Notes under the pieces: model-generated
The model's input: only the letters and a program-made list of their open reading frames with translations
Database searches by the model: none
What the model was told of the DNA's origin: nothing
Part shown: one piece after another, positions 1,568 through 45,436 of the stretch
Layout: each line of letters starts with the position of its first letter
Position numbering within the stretch: the first letter of the stretch is position 1
Translations under genes and position numbers: made by a program
IMG/VR virus record: IMGVR_UViG_2711768004_000013
Source of the DNA: a virus
Lineage: Duplodnaviria > Heunggongvirae > Uroviricota > Caudoviricetes
Length of the DNA: 45,436 bases
Direction: 5' to 3' (one strand)

Positions 1568-2350
1568 TTACTTATTCATTTCAATAATATTATTTTCTAT
1601 CATTGATTTATTTAAAACCAAAGAAGGAGCAAGATGGTTGTCTATTTTAAACAATGCATAACTTTTAAACTGTTGGTGATATCCGTAACTAATAAGGATG
1701 CTAGAAAAATCTCTTAATTCATCTTCTTTTAAAAAATTAAAATGAAATGGGTTGTCACCATTTATGAACAATGAAACATCTATTATGCAGTATTTCTCTC
1801 CGTTGTCATTTGCATAGAAAAAAATATAAGACATTCTGTTTGTTAAGACAATGCCATTAAATTTTCTTATGTCTGTAGCTATTTTGTTTTCCATGTTTGG
1901 TGCTACATATTTATTTTCAGAAATACATTTAATTTCATCTCCAGATGTCGTGATTATATAAAAATGAAACTTATCAGAAATATCTAACTTAACTACGCCA
2001 TCATTATTGTAAAGGCTGCTAAATTTTGGTGGTTCAACTTTTAAAGAATCATAGTTCTTTAAAAGAAGAGGGGAGTCAAATTTAATAACTTGTAGTATCC
2101 CTTTACCTTCAACCTCCATATTGATTGAAGATATAGCAATTGCATTATCTCTTTTATTATTCAGGATTATGGTTGATATATGCATGTCATATATTCTACT
2201 TGCATTTGCTGAATACGACACTGTCACCTTTTTTGATATTTTTTGCACGCCAAAATATATAGTGAAGGCAGCGGCAAGAATAGATAAGAATTTAATGTCA
2301 AATAAGGACCATAGCCACATTAGTTGCTCAATTGCTTCAGAGTTAATCAT
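1568..2350 (-). CDS. membrane-anchored hypothetical protein (AT-rich moron); start ambiguous (in-frame ATGs up to 2383; the 2401 codon is TTG)
   Basis: ORF 1568..2401; single N-terminal hydrophobic helix (LMWLWSLFDIKFLSILAAAFTIYFGV) followed by about 230 aa rich in N/K/I/D; strongly AT-rich versus flanking genes; separated from the upstream operon by a terminator. Confidence 0.5.
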   Translation of the reverse strand: MINSEAIEQLMWLWSLFDIKFLSILAAAFTIYFGVQKISKKVTVSYSANASRIYDMHISTIILNNKRDNAIAISSINMEVEGKGILQVIKFDSPLLLKNYDSLKVEPPKFSSLYNNDGVVKLDISDKFHFYIITTSGDEIKCISENKYVAPNMENKIATDIRKFNGIVLTNRMSYIFFYANDNGEKYCIIDVSLFINGDNPFHFNFLKEDELRDFSSILISYGYHQQFKSYALFKIDNHLAPSLVLNKSMIENNIIEMNK

Positions 2351-2504
2351 TTGCTTTACCATTATCGCTGTAATACAACACATGTGTGTATATATACGCA
2401 ATGCAATTATTTTGCAAGTGCTTCATTTACTATCAATAGCTACGTCACGTTATTGTTTAATGGTTCTTTATAGGGGCGGCAATAGTTAAAATTATCGCTT
2501 CCGT

Positions 2505-2526
2505 AAATGCCCCCGCAGGGGCATTT
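2505..2526. terminator. intrinsic terminator between the early-left operon and the AT-rich moron
   Basis: AAATGCCCC-CGCA-GGGGCATTT: 7-bp GC stem with A and T runs on both sides. Confidence 0.5.
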
Positions 2527-2538
2527 GCAGTAATGAAA

Positions 2539-3363
2539 TCAGGCGGTGAAAGTACCAATAAAGGTTTCTACTTTGCTGTCTTTGAATTTCTCAACAAGCA
2601 GATCACGAAATTCGTTAGCCATTTCTTCCTGTACCGCTTCCAGCTGAATAATGCGCAGAACCAGTACAGGACGATCGCCAGTGATAATGCTGAGGCGTAA
2701 TTTAAACGGACGTTCTTTCAGACCTTCAAACGGAACGCATTTAAATTCAAATGCCACTGGCATAATGTCTTTGGTCTTCGCTTCGACAGACTCCATCAGG
2801 GAGCGTTTGCCGCTGAAGTCATTATCTTCAAAATCAGCGGTCTGGTTCGCTTCAATTGTGATTTTACGGATCGCCGCAGCCGCTTTGGTTGCCTGAATGG
2901 CGTCACCATTAGCATCAAAGCCCACAAGGTAGTCGGCCCAGTCTTCAATCCATTCTGCCAGTGACTTCTGGGAGTTACGCTCGCCATTAACAGACAACAG
3001 AGCAGAGAACGGAGCTGTCTTTTTCAGTTTGAGAGTGGCGGTGTTATCTGCGTGACCTGGTTCATCAATAGTACCCAGGTTAAGAACACTGACGGCACGC
3101 ATATTATCAGCATCGATAAAGCAGCGGGTGCCTTCATCTGCAAGATCTTTAGAATAACGAGTAAAGTCATCGATGCTGGCAGTGGAAAGCGCACCACGGA
3201 AACGGAAACGATTTAAATTTAATTTTTCCAGATCATGAATGCGGAAATTCTCAGGCAATGCCACAGCATCGGCACCAATCTTACTGATAATTTCATTAAC
3301 ACCCTGAGCAGAAATAAGGGCATGGATTTGATTAATTGCGGTTGCGTCTAAGTTCTGAGACAT
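2539..3363 (-). CDS. conserved phage early protein (possibly DUF2303/YfdQ-like)
   Basis: 274-aa ORF with a GTGAGGA Shine-Dalgarno upstream; protein-like composition; the family assignment is from memory only. Confidence 0.55.
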
Positions 3364-4477: not shown

Positions 4478-5152
4478 TTAGGCCTTTATTATGTATCTTC
4501 TTGGTTTTCCTGAGAAAATCACTGTACCAATTATAGAGCAATTACCGTTAATCTTAATGTAAGGCTCAGGCCAGTTTGGGTTTAATGCTTTGAGATAACG
4601 CTGTGTTCCATCTTCTATCAACCGCTTGAAGGTGGTTTCGCCTGTATCGTGCATCAATGCAATAACGTCGTCACCGTGGCAGGCAGGGACTTCAGGATCA
4701 ACAAAAATCATGTCTCCCGGGCGGTACTCATCAATCATTGAATCACCAATCACCCGCAAGATATAAGTCATTTCGCCACAGGGTACAGGGCAGGGATAAG
4801 TTTCTGCTGTGCTCAAATCAACCTCAGAATAGCCAACTTCTTTCCATGCTCCGGCCTGTACCCATGATATGACAGGGACTAACGTTATTTGTTTGTTAGT
4901 GATTGAAACGTCAGGTTTTTTTGTGATGTTCGTTGTCTGGTGTTCTTGATCAAGCCATCCGACAGGCAGGTCGAAACATTTTTCGATGTGCCGTGCCATG
5001 CTGTCACCGATATTTTTAGTTGCACCATCTCCCATAAACCTGCTGGTCTGGGTTGGCTCGCGATCAATCATGGTGGCAAAGGAAGAATTCCCGCCAACAC
5101 CATCTCTCAGTTTTCTGGCGTTAGACCGCCGGATGTCATGGACTGTTTTCAT
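4478..5152 (-). CDS. CI-like prophage repressor (N-terminal HTH, C-terminal S24/LexA-type peptidase domain)
   Basis: 224-aa ORF; C-terminal VIGDSM serine motif and downstream FKRL lysine typical of S24 autopeptidases; divergent from a Cro-like gene with palindromic operators between them. Confidence 0.85.
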   Translation of the reverse strand: MKTVHDIRRSNARKLRDGVGGNSSFATMIDREPTQTSRFMGDGATKNIGDSMARHIEKCFDLPVGWLDQEHQTTNITKKPDVSITNKQITLVPVISWVQAGAWKEVGYSEVDLSTAETYPCPVPCGEMTYILRVIGDSMIDEYRPGDMIFVDPEVPACHGDDVIALMHDTGETTFKRLIEDGTQRYLKALNPNWPEPYIKINGNCSIIGTVIFSGKPRRYIIKA

Positions 5153-6038: not shown

Positions 6039-6871
6039 ACAGTTTAACGGCAAATAACCGTTTGTCGCAACAGCTGGTGGTCAGCGTCGCTGAACACCTG
6101 TTGTTACGGCATGAATGCAGATTACCAAATCACCTGGCTGTAAGTAACCACAGAGAACTTTACCTGACTGTGGGGGGCGAGTTGTGCAGGAACTTAACCG
6201 CTGGTTTCGTGACGGAAGAGGACTTTATGTTCATGTTATTCGTTGGGAGCCAGAAACACAGCGCGTTATCTATCTTCGCAAAGACTACCCGCATGAGTGC
6301 TTTAGTCCTTTGTGGAAATTCAGGCGTGATTTTGTTGAGTGTGAAGGACCACCAGCACATTGATTCTGCCATTCCGGGACGTTACACTGTTCAGGCACCT
6401 TATAAAGCGGGTGCCGGGATTGGCGTCCTGGAATTGATCAAGGCGATATATGACGCGCCAGCGTCTTTTTTATCGTCCGCATTTGCTCACATCAAAGTTA
6501 TGGTGGGCTGGGCGGGGGCATCGAAAGATGCGCCGGTTTCCTTGATCACCGGTTACGCCAACCCCGTTCAGTTCACCACCAGCGAAATTGGCGTTTCCGG
6601 TGGTGGAAGTATTTCACCGATCAAGGAGGCTGCCATCATGGCTACTGTCCCAGCCCTCACTCGTCTGAATGATGAAGACTTACATAAACTCAGTTATGTA
6701 ACAACTGCACTACGTGCTCTGCGCAAGGTAACTCTTTCGGATCCGCAGGCACATCAGGTTCTGGTAGAAACCCTTCTTAACTTGCAAGCTGAACGTATTC
6801 GTCTGGCGGATAAGGCTAATTTTCATATTCACCGTCTCCTGAATATCAGCGGAGGGCATCGTCATGCTTAA
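6035..6871 (+). CDS. hypothetical protein (278 aa)
   Basis: ATGA overlap with the upstream stop and GGAG about 10 nt upstream; no motif I recognise. Confidence 0.45.
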   Translation: MNSLTANNRLSQQLVVSVAEHLLLRHECRLPNHLAVSNHRELYLTVGGELCRNLTAGFVTEEDFMFMLFVGSQKHSALSIFAKTTRMSALVLCGNSGVILLSVKDHQHIDSAIPGRYTVQAPYKAGAGIGVLELIKAIYDAPASFLSSAFAHIKVMVGWAGASKDAPVSLITGYANPVQFTTSEIGVSGGGSISPIKEAAIMATVPALTRLNDEDLHKLSYVTTALRALRKVTLSDPQAHQVLVETLLNLQAERIRLADKANFHIHRLLNISGGHRHA

Positions 6872-14914: not shown

Positions 14915-15323
14915 NNNNNNNNNNNNNNNNNNNNNNNNNNNNNNNNNNNNNNNNNNNNNNNNNNNNNNNNNNNNNNNNNNNNNNNNNNNNNNNNNNNNNN
15001 NNNNNNNNNNNNNNNNNNNNNNNNNNNNNNNNNNNNNNNNNNNNNNNNNNNNNNNNNNNNNNNNNNNNNNNNNNNNNNNNNNNNNNNNNNNNNNNNNNNN
15101 NNNNNNNNNNNNNNNNNNNNNNNNNNNNNNNNNNNNNNNNNNNNNNNNNNNNNNNNNNNNNNNNNNNNNNNNNNNNNNNNNNNNNNNNNNNNNNNNNNNN
15201 NNNNNNNNNNNNNNNNNNNNNNNNNNNNNNNNNNNNNNNNNNNNNNNNNNNNNNNNNNNNNNNNNNNNNNNNNNNNNNNNNNNNNNNNNNNNNNNNNNNN
15301 NNNNNNNNNNNNNNNNNNNNNNN
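14915..15323. other. assembly gap (N-run)
   Basis: 409 consecutive N. Confidence 0.95.
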
Positions 15324-32122: not shown

Positions 32123-35100
32123 ATGGGTAAAGGCAGCAGTAAGGGGCATACCCCGCGCGAAGCAAAGGACAACCTGAAGTCCACGCAGTTGCTGAGTGTG
32201 ATCGATACCATCAGCGAAGGGCCGGTTGAAGGTCCGGTGGATGGATTAAAAAGCGTGCTGCTGAACAGTACACCGGTGCTGGACAGTGAGGGGAATACCA
32301 ACATCTCTGGTGTCACGGTGGTGTTCCGGGCAGGTGAGCAGGAACAGACACCGCCGGAGGGATTTGAATCATCAGGTTCCGAGACGGTACTGGGTACGGA
32401 AGTGAAATACGACACGCCGATCACCCGGACCATCACGTCGGCAAACATTGACCGTCTGCGCTTTACCTTCGGTGTGCAGGCACTGGTGGAAACCACCTCA
32501 AAGGGGGACAGGAATCCGTCGGAAGTCCGCCTGCTGGTTCAGATACAACGTAATGGTGGCTGGGTGACGGAAAAAGACATCACCATTAAGGGCAAAACCA
32601 CCTCGCAGTATCTGGCCTCGGTGGTGGTGGGTAACCTGCCGCCGCGCCCGTTCAATATACGGATGCGCAGGATGACGCCGGACAGCACCACAGACCAGCT
32701 GCAGAACAAAACGCTCTGGTCGTCATACACCGAAATCATCGATGTGAAACAGTGCTACCCGAACACGGCACTGGTCGGCGTGCAGGTGGATTCGGAGCAG
32801 TTCGGCAGCCAGCAGGTGAGCCGTAATTATCATCTGCGCGGGCGCATTCTGCAGGTGCCGTCGAGCTATAACCCGCAGACGCGGCAATACAGCGGTATCT
32901 GGGACGGAACGTTTAAGCCAGCATACAGCAACAACATGGCCTGGTGTCTGTGGGATATGCTGACCCATCCGCGCTACGGCATGGGGAAACGTCTTGGTGC
33001 GGCGGATGTGGACAAATGGGCGCTGTANNNNNNNNNNNNNNNNNNNNNNNNNNNNNNNNNNNNNNNNNNNNNNNNNNNNNNNNNNNNNNNNNNNNNNNNN
33101 NNNNNNNNNNNNNNNNNNNNNNNNNNNNNNNNNNNNNNNNNNNNNNNNNNNNNNNNNNNNNNNNNNNNNNNNNNNNNNNNNNNNNNNNNNNNNNNNNNNN
33201 NNNNNNNNNNNNNNNNNNNNNNNNNNNNNNNNNNNNNNNNNNNNNNNNNNNNNNNNNNNNNNNNNNNNNNNNNNNNNNNNNNNNNNNNNNNNNNNNNNNN
33301 NNNNNNNNNNNNNNNNNNNNNNNNNNNNNNNNNNNNNNNNNNNNNNNNNNNNNNNNNNNNNNNNNNNNNNNNNNNNNNNNNNNCATTGCCCGTTACGGTC
33401 GTAACGTCACGAAGATGGATGCTTTTGGCTGTACCAGCCGGGGGCAGGCACACCGCGCCGGGCTGTGGCTGATTAAAACAGAACTGCTGGAAACGCAGAC
33501 CGTGGACTTCAGCGTGGGTGCCGAAGGGCTTCGCCATGTACCGGGCGATGTCATTGAAATCTGCGATGATGACTATGCCGGTATCCGCACCGGCGGGCGC
33601 GTGCTGGCGGTAAACAGCCAGACCCGGACGCTGACGCTCGACCGTGAAATCACGCTGCCATCTTCCGGCACCACGCTGATAAGCCTGGTTGACGGGCAGG
33701 GGAGTCCGGTCAGCGTGGAGGTTCAGTCCGTCACCGACGGCGTGAAGGTGAAAGTGAGCCGTGTTCCTGACGGCGTTGCTGAATACAGCGTATGGGGGCT
33801 GAAGCTGCCGACGCTGCGCCAGCGCCTGTTCCGCTGCGTGAGTATCCGTGAGAACGACGACGGCACGTATGCCATCACTGCCGTGCAGCATGTACCGGAA
33901 AAAGAGGCCATCGTGGATAACGGGGCGCACTTTGACGGCGACCAGAGCGGCACGGTAAATGGTGTCACGCCGCCAGCGGTGCAGCACCTGACCGCAGAAG
34001 TCACCGCAGACAGCGGGGAATACCAGGTGCTGGCCCGCTGGGACACGCCGAAGGTGGTGAAGGGCGTGAGCTTCCTGCTTCGCCTGACCGTGGCAGCGGA
34101 TGACGGCCGTGAGCGGCTGGTCAGCACGGCCCGGACGACGGAAACCACTTACCGCTTCACACAACTGGCTCTGGGGAACTACAGGCTGACAGTCCGGGCA
34201 GTAAATGCGTGGGGGCAGCAGGGCGATCCGGCGTCGGTATCGTTCCGGATTGCCGCACCGGCAGCGCCGTCGCGGATTGAGCTGACGCCGGGCTATTTTC
34301 AGATAACCGCCACGCCGCATCTTGCGGTTTATGACCCGACGGTACAGTTTGAGTTCTGGTTCTCGGAAAAACGGATTGCGGATATCAGGCAGGTTGAAAC
34401 CACAGCCCGCTACCTTGGCACGGGGCTGTACTGGATAGCCGCCAGTATCAATATTAAGCCGGGCCATGATTATTACTTTTATATCCGCAGTGTGAACACC
34501 GTCGGCAAATCAGCATTCGTGGAGGCTGTCGGTCGGGCGAGCGATGATGCGGAAGGTTACCTGGATTTTTTCAAAGGCCAGATAACCGAATCCCATCTCG
34601 GCCAGGAGCTGCTGGAAAAAGTCGACCTGACGGAGGATAACGCCAGCAGACTGGAGGAGTTTTCGAAAGAGTGGAAGGACGCCAACGATAAGTGGAATGC
34701 CATGTGGGGCGTCAAAATTGAGCAGACCAAAGACGGCAAACATTATGTCGCGGGTATTGGCCTCAGCATGGAGGACACGGAGGAAGGCAAACTGAGCCAG
34801 TTTCTGGTTGCCGCTAACCGTATCGCGTTTATTGACCCGGCAAACGGGAATGAAACGCCGATGTTTGTGGCGCAGGGCAACCAGATATTCATGAATGACG
34901 TGTTCCTGAAACGCCTGACGGCTCCCACCATTACCAGCGGTGGAAATCCGCCGGCATTTTCCCTGACACCAGACGGAAAGCTGACCGCTAAAAATGCGGA
35001 TATCAGCGGTAATGTGAATGCAAATTCAGGGACGCTCAACAATGTCACGATTAACCAGAACTGTACGATTAAGGGCATGCTGGAGGCGACCCAGGTCAGA

Positions 35101-36255: not shown

Positions 36256-36266
36256 GTGGGGTGAAT

Positions 36267-39200
36267 ATGGCAGTAAAGATTTCAGGTGTACTGAAAGACG
36301 GCACAGGAAAACCGGTACAGAACTGCACAATCCAGCTGAAAGCAAAACGTAACAGCACCACGGTGGTGGTGAACACGCTGGCCTCAGAAAATCCGGATGA
36401 AGCCGGGCGTTACAGCATGGACGTTGAGTACGGTCAGTACAGCGTTATTCTGTTGGTGGAAGGATTCCCGCCGTCACATGCCGGGACCATCACCGTGTAT
36501 GAAGATTCCCGACCCGGTACGCTGAATGATTTTCTCGGTGCCATGACGGAGGATGATGCCCGTCCTGAGGCACTGCGCCGCTTTGAACTGATGGTGGAAG
36601 AGGTGGCGCGTAACGCGTCCGCGGTGGCACAGAACACGGCAGCCGCGAAGAAATCAGCCAGCGATGCCAGCACATCAGCCCGTGAGGCGGCAACCCGTGC
36701 GACTGATGCTGCAGGCTCAGCACGAGCAGCCAGCACGTCAGCCGGACAGGCCGCTTCGTCGGCTCAGTCTGCGTCTTCCAGCGCAGGAACGGCATCAGCA
36801 AAGGCCACTGAAGCATCAAAAAGTGCTGCCGCTGCAGAGTCCTCAAAAAGCGCGGCGGCCACCAGTGCCGGTGCGGCGAAAACGTCAGAAACGAATGCGG
36901 CAGCGTCACAACAATCAGCTGCCACTTCTGCATCCACCGCGACCACGAAAGCGTCAGAAGCAGCCACCTCAGCCAGAGATGCGTCGGCTTCAAAAGAGGC
37001 GGCAAAATTATCAGAAACGAGCGCAGCTTCGAGCGCCAGTAATGCCGCTTCCTCGGCAACGGCGGCAGGAAATTCCGCGAAGGCGGCAAAGACGTCTGAG
37101 ACAAACGCTAAGTCCTCTGAAACGGCAGCAGCACAGAGTGCCTCCGCAGCAGCAGGCTCAAAAACAGCGGCTGCGTCGTCTGCCAGTGCAGCGTCAACAA
37201 GTGCCGGGCAGGCCTCAGCCAGTGCTAGCGCCGCCGGAAAATCGGCAGAAAGCGCCGCATCGTCCGCTTCAACAGCCACAACGAAGGCTGGCGAAGCCAC
37301 TGAACAGGCCAGTGCAGCAGCGAGGTCTGCTTCCGCAGCGAAGACATCGGAGACGAACGCGAAAGCGTCGGAGACCAGCGCAGAATCCTCAAAAACGGCT
37401 GCCGCATCGTCCGCCAGTTCGGCGGCGTCATCGGCATCATCGGCGTCTGCTTCAAAAGATGAGGCGACCAGACAAGCGTCCGCAGCGAAGGGCAGCGCCA
37501 CGACAGCATCCACGAAGGCGACAGAGGCTGCTGGCAGTGCGACGGCGGCAGCACAGAGCAAAAGTACGGCGGAATCCGCGGCAACGCGCGCCGAGACAGC
37601 GGCAAAACGTGCAGAGGATATTGCATCCGCCGTGGCGCTTGAGGATGCGAGCACGACGAAAAAGGGGATAGTACAGCTCAGTAGTGCGACTAATAGCACG
37701 TCTGAAACGCTGGCGGCAACGCCAAAGGCAGTAAAAGCAGCCAATGACAATGCTGAGAAACGTCTGCAGAAAGACCAGAACGGCGCTGATATACCCGATA
37801 AGGGACGCTTCCTGAACAACATTAACGCGGTCAGTAAAACAGACTTTGCTGATAAGCGTGGTATGCGTTATGTGCGGGTTAACGCTCCTGCAGGTGCAAC
37901 ATCTGGAAAATATTACCCTGTTGTTGTTATGCGTTCTGCTGGCTCAGTAAGCGAACTGGCATCAAGGGTCATTATCACCACGGCAACGCGAATCGCAGGC
38001 GATCCGATGAATAACTGCGAGTTTAACGGATTTGTTATGCCTGGTGGCTGGACTGACAGGGGGCGTTATGCTTATGGAATGTTCTGGCAATATCAAAACA
38101 ATGAACGAGCCATCCACTCAATAATGATGAGTAATAAGGGCGATGATTTGCGCTCTGTGTTCTATGTTGATGGCGCTGCTTTCCCTGTTTTTGCGTTTCT
38201 CGAAGATGGCCTGTCAATATCCGCACCTGGTGCTGATCTCGTTGTTAATGATACGACCTATAAGTTTGGGGCAACAAATCCGGCGACTGAATGTATCGCG
38301 GCGGACGTTATCCTTGATTTTAAGAGTGGGCGTGGTTTTTATGAGTCTCATTCGTTAATCGTTAACGATAACTTGTCGTGCAAAAAACTTTTTGCCACAG
38401 ACGAAATTGTAGCGCGTGGTGGTAATCAGATTCGAATGATAGGTGGGGAGTATGGTGCATTATGGCGTAATGATGGCGCTAAAACTTACCTGCTGCTTAC
38501 CAATCAAGGTGATGTTTATGGTGGCTGGAATACATTAAGACCGTTTGTTATTGATAACGCAACCGGCGAACTGGTTATTGGAACCAAACTGTCTGCAAGT
38601 CTGAACGGTAACGCATTGACAGCAACAAAGCTGCAAACGCCAAGACTGGTTTCTGGTGTTGAGTTTGATGGTTCCAAAGATATTACTTTAACCGCCGCGC
38701 ATGTGGCTGCTTTTGCCAGAAGGGCAACGGATACATATGCCGATGCGGATGGTGGCGTTCCATGGAATGCCGAATCAGGCGCTTACAATGTCACCCGCTC
38801 TGGCAACAGCTATATTCTGGTTAACTTCTATACCGGAGTCGGAAGTTGCCGGACCTTGCAGATGAAGGCGCATTACAGAAATGGTGGTCTGTTCTACCGT
38901 TCTTCAAGAGACGGTTATGGTTTTGAGGAAGACTGGGCAGAAGTTTATACCTCGAAAAATCTTCCACCAGAAAGCTACCCAGTCGGTGCACCAATCCCGT
39001 GGCCATCAGATACCGTTCCGTCTGGTTATGCCCTGATGCAGGGACAGACTTTTGACAAATCTGCTTACCCGAAACTTGCAGCCGTTTATCCGTCAGGTGT
39101 GATCCCTGATATGCGTGGCTGGACGATTAAGGGCAAACCTGCCAGTGGTCGGGCCGTATTGTCTCAGGAACAGGACGGCATTAAATCGCATACCCACAGC

Positions 39201-39665
39201 GCCAGCGCATCCAGTACGGATTTGGGGACGAAAACCACATCGTCGTTTGATTACGGCACTAAATCCACGAATAACACTGGTGCGCATACCCATAGTTTAA
39301 GTGGCAGCACGAATGCAGCTGGTAATCACAGCCATAGAGATGGCCGTCGATTTAACCCCAGTGTTTTTAAAGATACTTATCAATATGGTTATACAAGCTC
39401 AGGTCAAAATACCTGGGGTGTACAAGGCTCAGTAGGTATGTCTACGGGGTGGTTAGCGAATACCAGTATAGATGGTAATCATAGCCATTCACTGTCCGGC
39501 ACAGCAGCATCTGCAGGTGCACACGCGCATACTGTCGGTATTGGTGCTCATACGCACTCCGTTGCGATTGGTTCACATGGACATACCATCACCGTTAACG
39601 CTGCGGGTAACGCGGAAAACACCGTCAAAAACATCGCATTTAACTATATTGTGAGGCTTGCATAA
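36267..39665 (+). CDS. stf: side tail fiber protein (Stf-like)
   Basis: N-terminus [26 protein letters not shown] matches lambda Stf; long Ala/Ser/Thr-rich repeat region; C-terminal His-rich HxH repeats. Confidence 0.85.
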
Positions 39666-40249
39666 TGGCATTCAGAATGAGTGAACAACCACGGACCATA
39701 AAAATTTATAATCTGCTGACCGGAACTAATGAATTTATTGGTGAAGGTGACGCATATATTCCGCCTCATACAGGTCTGCCAGCAAACAGTACCTATATTG
39801 CACCGCCAGATATTCCGGCTGGCTTTGTGGCTGTTTTCAACAGTGATGAGGCATCGTGGCATCTCGTTGAAGACCATCGGGGTAAAACGGTTTATGACGT
39901 AGCGTCAGGGGACGCGTTATTTATTTCTGAACTCGGTCCGTTACCGGAAAATGTTACCTGGTTATCCCCGGAAGGGGAGTTTCAGAAGTGGAACGGCACA
40001 GCCTGGGTGAAGGATACGGAAGCAGAAAAACTGTTCCGGATCCGGGAGGCGGAAGAAACAAAAAACAGCCTGATGCAGGTAGCCAGTGAGCATATAGCGC
40101 CGCTTCAGGATGCTGTGGATCTGGAGATCGCAACGGAGGAAGAAAACTCGTTGCTGGAAGCCTGGAAGAAGTATCGGGTGTTGCTGAACCGTGTTGATAC
40201 ATCAACTGCACCTGATATTGAGTGGCCTGCGGTCCCTGTTATGGAGTAA
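39665..40249 (+). CDS. tfa: tail fiber assembly protein (Tfa-like)
   Basis: 194 aa immediately after stf with TAATG overlap; same length as lambda Tfa. Confidence 0.8.
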
Positions 40250-40320
40250 TCGTTTTGTGATATGCCGCAGCAACTTGTCATGGCAGGATACTGCGGCTGA
40301 TTTGTGAATTTAAATAGTGT

Positions 40321-40390
40321 NNNNNNNNNNNNNNNNNNNNNNNNNNNNNNNNNNNNNNNNNNNNNNNNNNNNNNNNNNNNNNNNNNNNNN
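40321..40390. other. assembly gap (N-run)
   Basis: 70 consecutive N. Confidence 0.95.
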
Positions 40391-40405
40391 TAATGGATTA
40401 CATAT

Positions 40406-41776
40406 CTATGATATCCCTGAAATGTCCTCTTCAAGCTCTTTTACTGATTTCGCAATTTTAAATTTAAATTTTCTCTCTATTTCACTATTGCTAAGTTTTT
40501 TTTCATTCTCTTTCCCTATCCACATAGAAACAATTTCTCGTTTCTGAGATATATGTAGATTGTCAAAGTTAGGTATGTATTTAAAAGTCTCCGCTCTACC
40601 CCTGCGGAGTTCATAGAAAGTTTTAATCAAAGACTTTGGTTTTATTTCTGATGAAAGGCCGAATCGGCGGATAAGATTATTGATCGTATGATTAACAGCT
40701 CGAAGTTGAGCTGTTGACGTTATTTGTGAGAAGTACGATACCCATCCCAATCGTTTACCTTCAAACACACATCCCGTAATTCTAAGATTTAGTTTCCACT
40801 GACAATATGCAACAGCTCGTTCTTTATCGCGCTTATTTTTAGCTTGTAGTAGAGCGTGTCTATATGCAGTAAAAATTTTTGCTAAGGATGACTCAAATCT
40901 AAGAATGCTCTCATGTTTTATCAATAATTCTCGATTTTTTATGTGGTAGCCCAAAAAGTTGAAACTTTCATCCAAGCTGCCTACTTTGGATTTTGAGTTC
41001 TCTTCATTTAATGGATGTGGGTTTAAATTTAATGATTGAAGCTTATCAATGATATGAGAAGCTATTTTTGTTGCTTGATATTTTGGTGTTAAAATAAGAA
41101 TGTCATCAACGTATCGCATGTACCATATGTCATGCATTTTATTGATTTCATCATCGAAATTAGATAGTGATATTTCAGCTAAAATGTTTGATATCGCTAA
41201 TCCCTGAGGTACTCCTCTGGTATTATTAGGGATACCTTTGCTTCCTGTGGTTCCACTTACAGTAGGCACGATTAATGATGATGTTATTAACTGTCTAATT
41301 TCTTTTTTTCTAATTTTATTTTTTATTGCATTAATTATCAATTTATGTTCAATTGAAGGATAGAAACTTTTAAGATCTATTTTTGCATATTCAGCATATA
41401 GACTGTTGTTTAATGCTTCTTTCAATGAGTCAATTACTGTATGTGGTAGTTTTAATCTGGACTTAGGATATATTTCCGTAAGGCATTCACAGAGAGCTCT
41501 AAGAGTAATTCTGTCCCTAGCAGTTGGTATGGAAATCTGTCTGGGTGTAGAGTTAGCGCCTTTAGATATTAATTTTTCTTTATATGCTGTAAATTTGTAA
41601 TTGCCAGAATTAACCTTTTCAAAAATGAAAGTGATCTCATTTTTTATTGTCAAATCAAGTTTTGATGGGCGAATCCGATCTATGCCAATCGCTCCTGATT
41701 CTTTGATTTTTTCAGAGTATACTTTTAGAAGATTTTTTTTCGAGAATGACTTTTTAAAAATTCTGCTTGCAGTCAT
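40406..41776 (-). CDS. reverse transcriptase (retron / group-II-like catalytic motifs; probable defence-associated RT)
   Basis: 456 aa from the ATG at 41776 (ORF track extends to a TTG at 41782); motifs in order: GIDRIRP, RQISIPTARDR, IDLKSFYPSI (motif A), GVPQGLAISNILAEI (motif B), YMRYVDDILIL (motif C, YVDD), FNFLGYHI (motif E), RITG in the thumb; AT-rich; overlaps the upstream membrane-protein gene by 23 nt. Confidence 0.8.
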   Translation of the reverse strand: MTASRIFKKSFSKKNLLKVYSEKIKESGAIGIDRIRPSKLDLTIKNEITFIFEKVNSGNYKFTAYKEKLISKGANSTPRQISIPTARDRITLRALCECLTEIYPKSRLKLPHTVIDSLKEALNNSLYAEYAKIDLKSFYPSIEHKLIINAIKNKIRKKEIRQLITSSLIVPTVSGTTGSKGIPNNTRGVPQGLAISNILAEISLSNFDDEINKMHDIWYMRYVDDILILTPKYQATKIASHIIDKLQSLNLNPHPLNEENSKSKVGSLDESFNFLGYHIKNRELLIKHESILRFESSLAKIFTAYRHALLQAKNKRDKERAVAYCQWKLNLRITGCVFEGKRLGWVSYFSQITSTAQLRAVNHTINNLIRRFGLSSEIKPKSLIKTFYELRRGRAETFKYIPNFDNLHISQKREIVSMWIGKENEKKLSNSEIERKFKFKIAKSVKELEEDISGIS

Positions 41777-42305
41777 AGTCAATCCAAAGATATATTAATG
41801 GGAGTATATAAAGTGCGGCAGTAATAAATATTCGAAGTAATATCCATAAAATAACAATTATTTTTTCTTTTTGTGTGGGGATCCTCGTCTTAAGTCCAAC
41901 TTGAGTTACCCTTGAAATTTTATCATCTATGTCACGGTGATTCTCAACCTCATTGAGCAAATTAAAATATTTTTCTTTCTGTTCAAGAGATAACTGTTGA
42001 CTGGTGGTAATGTCAAAATAGAGTCGCTGTAGTGCAATATAATTCCTTCTCATGGCTATTGCTCGACCACGAAAATCTAGGTTAGATACGATCAGAGAAA
42101 TACCCAGTAGAGCCACTGAAAGTATCGCCGCAACGACATCTGTATTATCTCCTAGAACCTTTGGAAATCGCAACGTTACAATTGAAAGTACCGCACTCAA
42201 TATAGCATACCAAACGAGGATAAATTGAGAGTGTTTTTCAAGCCATTCTAGTCGATGGTGCGCTTGGATACGTGCTTTATATGTAAACCAAATATTGTCA
42301 TGCAT
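41754..42305 (-). CDS. small multi-TM membrane protein (2TM / SLATT-like), putative effector of the RT system
   Basis: 183 aa; two adjacent hydrophobic helices near the N-terminus, a predicted helical soluble stretch, and a C-terminal hydrophobic helix; AAGGA 6 nt before the ATG at 42305. Confidence 0.6.
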   Translation of the reverse strand: MHDNIWFTYKARIQAHHRLEWLEKHSQFILVWYAILSAVLSIVTLRFPKVLGDNTDVVAAILSVALLGISLIVSNLDFRGRAIAMRRNYIALQRLYFDITTSQQLSLEQKEKYFNLLNEVENHRDIDDKISRVTQVGLKTRIPTQKEKIIVILWILLRIFITAALYILPLIYLWIDYDCKQNF

Positions 42306-42470
42306 AAAAGATCCTTTTTAAAAGCGGAAGGGGCAGGATATATTGGAACCGTTGAACATCCTGCCCGGCAGGATCAGTGAGCATAAGCTCAACAGTAAAA
42401 TATTACTGTTCATTATCAGAGCCGCCCTTGCATGCGCAAGAGGAAAAACCTGCCCCATCCCTTTGAATTA
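42306..42470 (-). ncRNA. candidate structured non-coding RNA / 5-prime leader of the RT operon (retron msr-msd-like or DRT-ncRNA-like)
   Basis: ORF-free interval with a possible promoter (TTGACT, 17 nt, TGTAATAAT on the minus strand), distal inverted repeats GGGGCAGG / CCTGCCCC, and several internal hairpins. Confidence 0.3.
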
Positions 42471-42527
42471 TTACAATTTAATGATCTTAAAGTCAATACA
42501 AGTGAATGGTGTCCAGAGATGATGAAC

Positions 42528-42776
42528 TTAATGAACAAACCACTCGTCAGCAGACTCCCAGGTATCTTTCAGAGTCTCCTGAACAAAAGTTTTAGCTGAA
42601 TCTTTATCAGCGGTGCGCGTAACAGAAAGGCCATCGTTGCTGGTGGCTTTTACGATCACTTCTACATCGTCATAACGTTTACTGATGCGTCGGGTTAATT
42701 CTTCCTTTAACGCATCCACAGCACCGGTTGGCATTTTAGTCATTTTTTCTTTGGCTATGCAGATTTCAATACGCAT
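42528..42776 (-). CDS. DinI-like DNA-damage-inducible protein
   Basis: 82 aa; [11 protein letters not shown]... and ...[16 protein letters not shown] parallel E. coli DinI; GGGGA Shine-Dalgarno; two LexA boxes in its promoter region. Confidence 0.8.
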
Positions 42777-42790
42777 AAAAGTCCCCTACA

Positions 42791-42834
42791 CTGTATTTGT
42801 ATACAGTATTATTTTTAACTGTATGGATAAACAG
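42791..42834. promoter_or_regulatory. two tandem LexA (SOS) boxes upstream of the dinI-like gene
   Basis: CTGTATTTGTATACAG (42791-42806) and CTGTATGGATAAACAG (42819-42834), both CTGT-N8-ACAG. Confidence 0.55.
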
Positions 42835-42836
42835 TG

Positions 42837-43934
42837 TCAAGAGGTCTTATTTCTGCTCCTTTGGAGTTCTTCAAAACGATTATGTAAAGATTTCGGATAC
42901 AGTTCGGTATATACCTGCCATAGCACGTTTAATGAACGATGCCCTGTAACCTGAGCGACTTCCTCAATACTAAAACCAGCCTCAAATAAGCGACTTGCCC
43001 CTTCTCTACGCAAATCATGGTATCTCAGATCTTTAATACCTAATTTGCTTCTTACCCTCTGAAATCCTGCGGTAACAGAAGTGCTGTTATATGGAAAAAT
43101 GAATTCTGATTTTTTGGGTTGTCGCTGGACGATATCCCAGGCTTCCCCAAGCAAGGCAACTTTCATATGGTTGCCTTCCTTTTTACGTGGATCTTTCCTG
43201 TCTCTTACTAGTATAGATTTTTGTTCCTGGTCGAGATCTTCCCATCGTAACCGGCATACTTCTCCGATTCGCATACAGGACCACACAGAAAATTTGAGGA
43301 TATCAACGAACGGAATTTTTGAGCATTTATGAGTAGATCGTTGTTGAAGGCCTTCAATGAGCATGTTCAGTTCATCAGATGCTGGTCTACGATTACGACG
43401 GTTTGATTTACCAATCAAACCGAGTTTAAGTAGATATGGACGAGCGCTTTTCGCCGGGTTTGATGTGTAATTGATTCCGTATACAGGTTTTGCCGCATCC
43501 AGAACACTGCCAAGATAACTAACATCGTGGCTGACTGTTGCTGGGCCTGCACCAGCGTTGTTTCTTAGCCTGCAATGTTCAATTACGTCATTTTCTGTCA
43601 GTTCAGATAGTTTGATCGCGGAGATGTCACTATCCATAAGCAGTTCCAGCACATATCTTTTAGTACGGCCTGCTTTACCTCCGGCATTTGGGTCATTTAA
43701 ATATTTGTGTAGTAAGTCACGGACTGTAAGTCCGTCAACAGCATTTGATGATGGAATGCCATATAGATCTAATTCCATCACTTTCTGTGCGCCCCATGTT
43801 TTGGCATGAGCATGTTTAGGGAATGTTTTGCTTTCCCTGTAAGTGATAACACCTTTTTCTTTGATAATCACATTACAGCGATAGCGTGGTGTGCCATCGG
43901 ATTTTAGTCGTTTCTCTATGTTATAGTACGCCAT
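42837..43934 (-). CDS. int: tyrosine integrase (dusA-associated type)
   Basis: 365 aa; C-terminal catalytic residues in HDLRREGASRLF, VTGHRS and LWQVYTE; immediately adjacent to dusA. Confidence 0.9.
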   Translation of the reverse strand: MAYYNIEKRLKSDGTPRYRCNVIIKEKGVITYRESKTFPKHAHAKTWGAQKVMELDLYGIPSSNAVDGLTVRDLLHKYLNDPNAGGKAGRTKRYVLELLMDSDISAIKLSELTENDVIEHCRLRNNAGAGPATVSHDVSYLGSVLDAAKPVYGINYTSNPAKSARPYLLKLGLIGKSNRRNRRPASDELNMLIEGLQQRSTHKCSKIPFVDILKFSVWSCMRIGEVCRLRWEDLDQEQKSILVRDRKDPRKKEGNHMKVALLGEAWDIVQRQPKKSEFIFPYNSTSVTAGFQRVRSKLGIKDLRYHDLRREGASRLFEAGFSIEEVAQVTGHRSLNVLWQVYTELYPKSLHNRFEELQRSRNKTS

Positions 43935-43953
43935 TACACGACCTCGTTATTTC

Positions 43954-43989
43954 GGGTTCCCATAAAGCGTGGGAACCTGTGCGGGAACC
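43954..43989. repeat. GGGAACC direct repeats with one inverted copy in the int-dusA intergenic region (possible recombinase or regulator binding sites)
   Basis: GGGTTCCC at 43954-43961, then GTGGGAACCT and GCGGGAACCT at 43969-43990. Confidence 0.3.
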
Positions 43990-44022
43990 TAACGCGAGAA
44001 AAATAGCCTGAAATGTTCAAAA

Positions 44023-45060
44023 ATGCACGATAATCCTGAAACACAGAAAACTAATCAAACCAGCGTGATGCCTGAAAAAACTGGCGCTTACTGGAGTTCT
44101 CGGTTTAGCATTGCTCCTATGCTCGACTGGACGGACAGACATTGCCGCTATTTCTTGCGTCTGCTTTCCCGCAATACGTTGCTGTATACCGAAATGGTGA
44201 CCACAGGGGCGATTATTCACGGTAAAGGTGATTACCTGGCGTACAGTGAAGAAGAACATCCGGTAGCGTTGCAACTCGGCGGTAGCGATCCGGCGGCGCT
44301 GGCACAGTGTGCGAAGCTGGCAGAAGCGCGTGGATATGATGAGATCAACCTGAATGTCGGCTGCCCGTCTGACCGGGTGCAGAACGGCATGTTTGGTGCG
44401 TGTCTGATGGGTAATGCGCAGCTGGTTGCCGACTGCGTGAAAGCGATGCGCGATGTGGTGTCGATTCCAGTGACGGTGAAAACGCGTATTGGCATCGATG
44501 ACCAGGACAGCTATGAATTTCTCTGCGATTTCATCAACACCGTTTCCGGCAAAGGCGAGTGTGAGATGTTTATCATCCACGCACGTAAAGCCTGGCTTTC
44601 GGGGTTAAGCCCGAAAGAAAACCGTGAAATCCCGCCACTCGATTATCCGCGTGTGTATCAACTGAAGCGTGACTTTCCGCATCTGACAATGTCGATTAAC
44701 GGTGGTATCAAGTCGCTGGAAGAGGCCAAAGCACACCTGCAACATATGGATGGCGTGATGGTCGGGCGCGAGGCGTATCAGAATCCGGGTATTCTGGCGG
44801 CGGTAGACCGGGAGATCTTTGGTTCCTCGGATACCGATGCCGATCCGGTGGCGGTAGTGCGCGCCATGTATCCGTACATTGAGCGTGAACTCAGCCAGGG
44901 GACGTATCTCGGCCATATTACCCGGCATATGTTGGGCTTGTTCCAGGGTATTCCTGGCGCGCGGCAGTGGCGGCGTTATTTAAGTGAAAATGCCCATAAA
45001 GCGGGTGCAGACATTAATGTGCTGGAACACGCGCTCAAACTGGTGGCGGATAAGCGTTAA
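44023..45060 (+). CDS. dusA: tRNA-dihydrouridine synthase A
   Basis: 345 aa with the conserved ...[16 protein letters not shown]... region and active-site context NLNVGCP; recognisably E. coli DusA. Confidence 0.9.
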
Positions 45061-45142
45061 CTTTTCACCAAAAAGTAGTCAAATTCACCACGCCCTGCGC
45101 ACCGTCGCGGGGCGTTTTGCTGTTAAATCAATAGATTATTTT

Positions 45143-45158
45143 TGGCATGATTCTTGTA
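45143..45158 (+). promoter_or_regulatory. putative sigma-54 promoter of pspG
   Basis: TGGCATG-ATTC-TTGTA fits the -24/-12 pattern TGGCACG-N4-TTGCA at 10 of 12 positions. Confidence 0.4.
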
Positions 45159-45193
45159 ATGCCAGCAAGAGATTTCATATTTGGGAGAGCATC

Positions 45194-45436
45194 ATGCTGG
45201 AACTACTTTTTGTGATTGGCTTTTTTGTCATGCTGATGGTCACCGGCGTTTCGTTGCTGGGCATTATCGCCGCGCTGGTTGTGGCGACGGCCATTATGTT
45301 CCTCGGCGGTATGCTGGCATTGATGATTAAGTTGCTGCCGTGGTTACTACTGGCGATTGCGGTGGTGTGGGTTATTAAGGCGATTAAAGCACCAAAAGTG
45401 CCGAAATATCAGCGTTATGACCGCTGGCGTTACTAA
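45194..45436 (+). CDS. pspG: phage shock protein G
   Basis: 80-aa very hydrophobic protein; sequence and position downstream of dusA match E. coli PspG. Confidence 0.85.
   Translation: MLELLFVIGFFVMLMVTGVSLLGIIAALVVATAIMFLGGMLALMIKLLPWLLLAIAVVWVIKAIKAPKVPKYQRYDRWRY

Follow-up and report, generated by a model that had tools for sequence, protein, structure and literature searches.

Within the 45,436-nt stretch of caudoviricete DNA recorded in IMG/VR as IMGVR_UViG_2711768004_000013, hereafter the window, we identified an operon that we interpret, with high confidence, as a complete DRT10 anti-phage system (UG17, Class 2 UG/Abi) of the Eco3 type, carried as a moron by a prophage integrated at dusA. 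The operon occupies the minus strand, with the gene for tail-fibre assembly (tfa) on one side and the dinI/int end on the other, and consists of a structured non-coding RNA (ncRNA), followed by a gene for a SLATT membrane protein and then by a gene for a reverse transcriptase (RT). Five sequence features that mark a DRT10 system were found at this locus, namely a UG17 RT, a coupled SLATT gene, an upstream structured ncRNA, an A-B-A' element after a stem-loop, and an RT that combines a C-terminal serine with the YVDD motif. The locus is a near-allele of the characterised Eco3DRT10, and the system is already known rather than new.

UG17 was defined in 2021-22, and its naming as DRT10 and the elucidation of its mechanism followed in 2025-26 (PMC12632851; 10.64898/2026.04.29.721553; 10.64898/2026.06.29.735271). 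Three Escherichia coli UG17 operons have been shown to defend against phage in a manner that needs the RT active site, SLATT, and the upstream ncRNA (Tang et al. 2025, PMC12632851). The DRT10 RT synthesizes kilobase-long, protein-primed, tandem-repeat single-stranded DNA (ssDNA) from an A-B-A' element in the template loop of the ncRNA (PMC12632851). What is striking about DRT10 is that a bacterial RT works like telomerase, and this has already been described genetically, biochemically, and by cryogenic electron microscopy (cryo-EM) on a homologue 98% identical to the one studied here. The window adds the commoner natural allele of the template, with the predicted repeat GAACCGTTG, and the native prophage setting of the cassette.

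A first-pass annotation, made by a model from the raw sequence, had already pointed to an AT-rich minus-strand operon between tfa and dinI/int and had proposed an RT-based anti-phage module with a structured RNA and a pore-like membrane effector, following the logic of SLATT-associated UG/Abi RTs. This description held in our analysis. The GC fraction was 0.27-0.37 over 40200-42000, as against approximately 0.5 in the flanking prophage and dusA, the flanking genes were as described, and the module resolved into matches to RT_UG17, to RTasSLATT and SLATT_5, and to the DRT10 ncRNA. A real defence system had thus been recognised from raw sequence. The accompanying statement that the module fits no type that can be named is out of date, given that UG17 was defined in 2021-22 and named DRT10 in 2025-26.

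A UG17 reverse transcriptase coupled to a SLATT membrane protein

The RT open reading frame (ORF) extends over 40406-41782 on the minus strand and encodes 458 aa when read from a TTG codon or 456 aa when read from the ATG at 41776. Because all 20 aligned homologues begin with M-[TSN]-A at the position of this ATG, we placed the RT start there, so that the gene spans 40406-41776. The RT of Eco3DRT10 from E. coli 703491 (OKX54664) was likewise annotated as 458 aa with two spurious N-terminal residues, and its priming Ser458 is numbered S456 (Tang et al., PMC12632851); the same two-residue correction of the start applies to the RT ORF of the window.

In the profile searches that the first-pass annotation had suggested, the RT matched PADLOC RT_UG17 over its full length, with an E-value of 1.1e-158 and a score of 526.6 bits; residues 3-458 aligned to positions 1-429 of the 429 in the profile. 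Drt3a (130 bits) and the generic RT profile (121.7 bits) came next, Drt9 scored 69 bits, and Pfam returned RVT_1 alone. Near-identical RT sequences are listed as UG17 loci in Table S1 of Tang et al. (PMC12632851). The motifs quoted in the first-pass annotation, IDLKSFYPSI, GVPQGLAISNILAEI, RYVDD, RITG, and NNSLY, are all present in the translation. YVDD is encoded at 41113-41102 and the C-terminal Ser456 at 40411-40409. Across 21 homologues with identities down to 59%, Y222, V223, D224, D225, R371, K385, Y388, and the terminal Ser456 were invariant; for Ser456 and the catalytic residues it is the presence in the sequence that was tested, and the priming role is assigned by homology to Eco3.

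The 183-aa protein encoded immediately upstream (41754-42305, minus strand) matched the RT-associated SLATT profile of PADLOC (RTasSLATT) with an E-value of 1.5e-56 and Pfam SLATT_5 with 100.1 bits, compared with a cutoff of 29.5. A hydropathy scan located three hydrophobic segments at approximately residues 27-47, 56-76, and 150-175, in keeping with the earlier description of a 183-aa membrane protein upstream of a 456-aa RT. The SLATT and RT genes overlap by 23 nt. Among 44 related loci taken from species-representative genomes, the SLATT gene stood directly upstream of the RT gene in 39.

A conserved five-stem-loop RNA upstream of the SLATT gene

The leader that precedes the SLATT gene had been described as structured, and both folding and covariation bore this out. 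The 222-nt intergenic stretch folded with z = -3.8 and its 137-nt core with z = -4.6, and 0 of 200 shuffles folded as well. Counted from the start near 42460 that a promoter-like site predicts, the DRT10 ncRNA spans 137 nt (42324-42460, minus strand), in the same register as the Eco3DRT10 ncRNA. In the minimum free energy (MFE) fold, a 12-bp basal stem (stem-loop SL1, RNA positions 1-12/124-135) encloses SL2 (18-36), the 14-nt Loop A (37-50), SL3 (51-70), SL4 (71-82), SL5 (87-103), and the 20-nt Loop B (104-123).

We then compared 26 distinct upstream sequences from Enterobacterales, Pseudomonas, Stutzerimonas, Stenotrophomonas, and Bordetella, drawn from loci whose SLATT proteins were at least 38% identical. 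Standard pairs occupied 97% of the pair cells, and 19 of the 34 pairs showed compensatory changes on both sides. None of 500 shuffles reached the observed level, and sliding the 3' partner lowered pairing to 45-58%. Unguided RNAalifold recovered the same five helices. When we built a covariance model from 19 loci outside E. coli, with the window and its closest relative left out, its single match across all 45 kb of the window fell at 42324-42459 (minus strand; 112.6 bits, E-value 3.7e-31). No family in Rfam 15 covered the leader RNA, and weak matches to Rfam microRNA families (E-value 0.58) were judged to be due to chance.

SL5 (42358-42374, minus strand), for which the role of template-boundary element was shown in Eco3, was paired in 100% of cells in the 26 homologues, and the flanking G86 and G104 were invariant. 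Loop A (42411-42424, minus strand; CGGCUCUGAUAAUG), the second single-stranded loop, was also highly conserved, with G38, G39, C42, U43, A45, A47, and A48 invariant; U43 and G44 stand at the positions numbered in the cryo-EM paper (10.64898/2026.06.29.735271).

The template loop and its two natural alleles

Three bases past SL5, RNA positions 107-119 show the A-B-A' layout CAA(C)-GGUUC-CAA(U). The predicted template A-B (RNA 107-115; 42346-42354, minus strand) reads 5'-CAACGGUUC-3' and is the position-for-position equivalent of the Eco3 template CAAUGAUUC. It is followed by the realignment segment A' (CAAU, RNA 116-119; 42342-42345, minus strand), which was located by its sequence and takes its role from Eco3. 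The published Eco3 positions U43, G44, G86, G104, U105-U106, C107, G111, C116, and A120-U123 were all in place; in Eco3 numbering, C107 forms the 5' edge of the template, and U105-U106 and A120-U123 are linkers. Alignment with six other E. coli alleles showed no insertion or deletion within the ncRNA. A (U)CAA...(U)CAA arrangement that repeats every 9-11 nt was present at the equivalent place in the majority of the 26 homologues.

Eco3DRT10 makes Ser456-primed (GAATCATTG)n, and point mutants of its template, such as U110A, reprogram the repeat (PMC12632851; 10.64898/2026.06.29.735271). We read the Eco3-type ncRNA from strain CE10, whose RT is identical to that of Eco3 over 397 aa. The Eco3-type alleles of strains CE10 and CFIAFB20180511 carry CAAUGAUUC at positions 107-115, whereas the window carries CAACGGUUC. 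Within the ncRNA, the window differed from the Eco3-type alleles only at positions 110 and 112 (U110C and A112G), with CE10 differing additionally at position 25. From these two linked substitutions, the complementary DNA (cDNA) repeat of the window allele is predicted to be 5'-GAACCGTTG-3' and its product (GAACCGTTG)n, as opposed to the GAATCATTG of Eco3.

When we examined 5,426 complete E. coli genomes, 188 carried the ncRNA, of which 154 had the window allele and 34 the Eco3 allele. No third template allele was found in the 45-nt template-loop stretch among these 188 carriers. In other genera, CAACGGU was the commonest state of the core, and a CAACGG core was common to homologues from Xenorhabdus, Photorhabdus, Pseudomonas, and Stenotrophomonas. 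U110C and A112G thus make up the majority natural allele in E. coli. If the sequence of the repeat matters downstream, the polymorphism could be a determinant of specificity rather than neutral drift, an idea that we regard as unlikely. Were it true, the studied Eco3 allele would be the derived and atypical one, and the steps affected might include SLATT activation, sensitivity to exonuclease I (ExoI), binding by phage or host single-stranded DNA-binding protein (SSB), and evasion of phage counter-defence.

The MFE fold also contained pairing between Loop A and Loop B (G38-G39/C42-G44 with C110-G112/C115-C116), which the two allele-specific substitutions of the window strengthen. None of these five pairs showed covariation in the 26 homologues; at positions 44/110, for instance, we counted GC in 9, GA in 7, AC in 6, GU in 2, and AU in 2. 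Because covariation was absent and both loops lie in RT active sites in the Eco3 cryo-EM complex, we rejected this pairing as a conserved element.

Comparison with characterised systems

The closest characterised relative is Eco3DRT10. Over the 397 residues of OKX54664 read from Table S1 of Tang et al., its RT differs from that of the window at 8 positions (98% identity). The RT of CE10, which is identical to that of Eco3 over those 397 aa and whose locus carries CAAUGAUUC, differs from the window RT at 11 of 456 aa, and the CE10 SLATT protein differs at 4 of 183 aa. Eco3DRT10 and the window share the ncRNA-SLATT-RT order, the overlap between the genes for SLATT and RT, a 456-aa RT with Ser456, YVDD, R371, K385, and Y388, and the 137-nt ncRNA register with five stem-loops, Loop A, and Loop B. 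They also share an adjacent tyrosine recombinase, which is present in two of the three E. coli systems of Tang et al. (PMC12632851).

Eco1DRT10 and the UG17-A system of Escherichia sp. E3659 resemble the window in their tripartite design, A-B-A' template logic, C-terminal protein priming, and SLATT effector. Unlike the window, they have a shorter RT (with priming Tyr444 in Eco1), repeats of 7-8 nt (AGTAATA; AATCGTGT), and an ncRNA of approximately 134-143 nt with six stem-loops and a sequence unrelated to that of the window. Architecture and taxonomy of the window locus fit UG17-A of Sanchez-Nieto et al., and we assign no formal subtype. Another prophage-borne pair of a UG17 RT and a SLATT_5 protein in E. 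coli, the RT-SLATT system of the H120 prophage, makes sbcB essential (Rousset et al. 2021, 10.1101/2020.05.25.114553). We considered whether the window locus could be this sbcB-linked system and ruled it out by the opposite gene order, in which RT precedes SLATT, and by its different subtype, UG17-B.

More distantly, DRT9 (UG28) is like DRT10 a Class 2 UG/Abi RT that carries out protein-primed synthesis from a loop of a similarly shaped multi-stem-loop ncRNA, but it copies a poly-U template into poly-dA with tyrosine priming. Telomerase (the telomerase reverse transcriptase TERT together with telomerase RNA) shares with DRT10 a short internal template, an A' alignment segment, a boundary element (SL5 in DRT10), and repeat-addition processivity (Tang et al., PMC12632851). 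The two differ in that telomerase extends a chromosome end, whereas the bacterial DRT10 extends a protein primer with two RTs per RNA and makes a product for immunity. That DRT10 and telomerase are evolutionarily linked has been proposed by Tang et al. (PMC12632851).

Proposed mode of action

Structural and biochemical work on Eco3 provides the framework for the window allele. Cryo-EM of Eco3 resolved two RTs on one pseudo-symmetric ncRNA (2:1) and defined the boundaries of the template (Ramirez et al. 2026, 10.64898/2026.06.29.735271). C116 templates the first, protein-primed nucleotide, R371 anchors SL5, and K385 and Y388 contact SL1 (PMC12632851; 10.64898/2026.06.29.735271), and Loop A is bound by the second RT monomer, whose abortive product is only approximately 10 nt long (10.64898/2026.06.29.735271). 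In the UG17-A system of Escherichia sp. E3659, ExoI (SbcB) suppresses toxicity and an SSB-like protein of the phage promotes activation (10.64898/2026.04.29.721553).

By homology, the 137-nt ncRNA of the window would be transcribed from its own extended -10 promoter, fold into five stem-loops around two single-stranded loops, and be bound by two RT monomers. Opposite C116, the monomer at Loop B would prime DNA on the hydroxyl group of Ser456 at its own C-terminus; it would then copy the template as far as C107, at which point SL5, with R371 as its anchor, would stop synthesis. The nascent DNA would then unpair, re-pair with A' (CAAU, 116-119), and be extended again, so that kilobase-long single-stranded tandem repeats would accumulate in covalent linkage to the RT; the monomer at Loop A would make only a short abortive product. 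Following the UG17-A model (10.64898/2026.04.29.721553), ExoI (SbcB) of the host would restrain the product until the balance is shifted by infection, with an SSB-like protein of the phage as one possible trigger. Accumulation or altered processing of the ssDNA is proposed to trigger the SLATT membrane effector, which would stop the infection, probably through membrane damage in the infected cell.

Points against the assignment and alternative explanations

Several points weigh against this interpretation. The cDNA, the phage protection, and the transcript of the window allele are expected from homology to Eco3DRT10, and the step from repeat DNA to SLATT activation is a proposed one in all DRT10 systems. 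The two groups also disagree on what happens to the cDNA at infection, which falls according to Tang et al. (PMC12632851) and rises according to Sanchez-Nieto et al. (10.64898/2026.04.29.721553). Two further points concern the template itself. The segments A (CAAC) and A' (CAAU) match at three of four bases in the window allele, compared with four of four in Eco3, so that the 3' end ...GTTG, when realigned on A', would form three Watson-Crick pairs plus one dG-rU wobble. We do not expect this difference to matter, because in Eco3 changes of the fourth base were tolerated and repeats were made efficiently with an A/A' of 3 nt (PMC12632851). In addition, A112G gives rise to a 4-nt GUUC/GUUC repeat whose period is 8 (positions 104-107 and 112-115), which is the longest exact repeat in the loop and could in principle compete with the CAA...CAA template, although it should not do so. 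We rejected this 8-nt repeat (8-mer unit CGTTGAAC) as the template on two grounds: G104-U106 are located 5' of the C107 boundary that SL5 enforces in Eco3, and CAA...CAA is the pattern conserved in the homologues.

Among the alternatives to a complete DRT10 system, the one that survived best was a decayed, non-functional DRT10 copy in a degenerating prophage, which we consider very improbable. In some alleles the adjoining dinI carries a frameshift, and some of the prophages that host the system are truncated, but both ORFs of the operon are intact, all functionally tested residues are kept, the ncRNA is intact, and a promoter-like site is present. Moreover, the exact RT sequence (WP_039268535.1) is present on 732 contigs, and the 45-nt template-loop stretch is identical in 154 complete E. 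coli genomes.

Even less probable is a different Class 2 UG/Abi system, making poly-dA as DRT9 does or resembling DRT3. The RTs are related, as the Drt3a and Drt9 scores of 130 and 69 bits reflect, and the DRT10 ncRNA resembles that of DRT9 (Tang et al., PMC12632851). These scores, however, are 4-7 times below that of UG17, the template loop reads CAACGGUUC-CAAU and not poly-U, and the locus is without the second RT (UG8) of DRT3. In the DRT10 system examined by Sanchez-Nieto et al., poly-dA was not found (10.64898/2026.04.29.721553).

The first-pass annotation had called the RT retron- or group-II-like, for which we found no family-level support; neither msr/msd nor intron RNA accompanies it, and its generic RT profile score is 121.7 bits. 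We give hardly any weight to a retron whose RT would make multicopy single-stranded DNA (msDNA) from an msr/msd RNA with the two-transmembrane (2TM) protein as effector. Some database records do call homologues 'retron-type reverse transcriptase', the generic RT profile is matched, and an RT with a 2TM effector is a known retron layout. Against this stand the full-length UG17 match at 526.6 bits, NNSLY in place of NAxxH, and a leader that is a five-stem-loop RNA matching the DRT10 covariance model rather than an msr/msd with long a1/a2 inverted repeats. No Rfam retron family matched, and Eco3 primes from a C-terminal protein serine, not from the 2'-OH of a branching G.

We dismiss to the same degree the idea that the RT is the maturase of a group II intron, or a group-II-like remnant that plays no part in defence: although group II intron RTs are the nearest solved structures by sequence (GsI-IIC, E-value 4e-14, over RT fingers and palm only; our sequence search of a copy of the PDB returned distant RTs only and no DRT10 entry) and one GenBank record names the protein 'maturase-related', no intron RNA family was detected on either strand (at E <= 1 in 39500-45436 and at the gathering score over the whole window), Pfam found RVT_1 only and no maturase X or endonuclease domain, the RT is accompanied by a SLATT gene (upstream of it in 39 of 44 related loci) and by a conserved ncRNA, and it occupies a prophage moron position rather than an interrupted gene.

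Expression and prophage setting of the DRT10 cassette

Upstream of the ncRNA, a consensus scan identified a promoter-like site at 42467-42496 on the minus strand, consisting of a -35 element TTGACT (42496-42491), an 18-nt spacer, and an extended -10 element TGtAATAAT (42475-42467). It matches the consensus at 10 of 12 positions in addition to the TG extension and predicts a start at approximately 42460. Pseudomonas and other homologues carry a TGTAAnAT motif that is equally far from SL1. From these features, we infer that 42467-42496 is the promoter of the ncRNA. The 3' end of the ncRNA is separated from the SLATT ATG by 18 nt that contain the ribosome-binding site, and we found no terminator and no other minus-strand promoter-like site in this gap. 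The SLATT-RT messenger RNA is therefore probably a read-through product of the ncRNA promoter, and the dinI promoter may contribute in the same way. Just upstream of the DinI-like gene (42528-42776), at 42789-42808, we observed a LexA-box-like palindrome, TACTGTATACAAATACAG (CTGT-N8-ACAG), beside a promoter-like site at 42840-42811. We detected no terminator in the stretch from dinI to the DRT10 ncRNA promoter, so that transcription induced by the SOS response could conceivably run on into the defence operon.

The prophage is lambdoid and integrated at dusA, and the cassette occupies its tail-fibre end. The cassette is bounded on one side by tfa, a Caudo_TAP tail-fibre assembly gene in Pfam (39665-40249), and on the other by the DinI-like gene, a tyrosine integrase gene (42837-43934), and then dusA. 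The DRT10 cassette is therefore carried as a prophage moron between the tail-fibre assembly gene and an SOS-box-bearing dinI. Prophages at three places in the chromosome, dusA, prfC, and yecD/aspS, share the same dinI-ncRNA-SLATT-RT-tfa order (loci L001 and L046-L051), which fits a mobile moron. In L047-L049, which are the more divergent of the sampled alleles and include one from an ST131 strain, DRT10 was intact while dinI carried a frameshift. Deposited phage genomes gave no match to the system at megablast sensitivity, so that at this sensitivity it was seen only in prophages.

A run of 70 N (40321-40390) lies just downstream of the RT stop codon and outside the system, and it replaces only 26 real bases of NZ_CP015085 (positions 3121-3146 of locus L001). 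The window contains two other N runs, at 14915-15323 and 33028-33383, and as the third stands for 26 bases, N runs in this record do not preserve the original length. Between tfa and the RT stop codon, we also noted a GC-rich hairpin, GCCGCAG...CTGCGGC (40264-40297), with a T-rich tract after it on the plus strand. This hairpin probably serves as the terminator of tfa and may also end the convergent DRT10 transcript.

Other features of the prophage were recorded in the course of the analysis. Rfam gave a full-length match to the IS009 small RNA (219.5 bits; gathering score 117) at 40008-40206 on the plus strand, inside the 3' part of tfa. Matches to isrK (64 bits) and C4 antisense RNA (82 bits) lay side by side at 6395-6583 on the plus strand; these form an antisense immunity RNA pair of the P1/P7 type in the prophage early region, near a Peptidase_S24 repressor-like gene (4478-5152, minus strand). 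A second AT-rich stretch, at 1568-3363 on the minus strand (GC fraction 0.37-0.40), contains a 277-aa ORF that matched nothing in Pfam or PADLOC, together with a gene for a DUF2303 protein (2539-3363), and may be another accessory module of the prophage. An ORF of 1,134 aa (36261-39665, plus strand) encodes a tail fibre, the N-terminal half of which is a long, low-complexity, Ala/Ser/Thr-rich region (GC fraction up to 0.64, with strong AT skew), and the C-terminal part of which is His-rich and repetitive.

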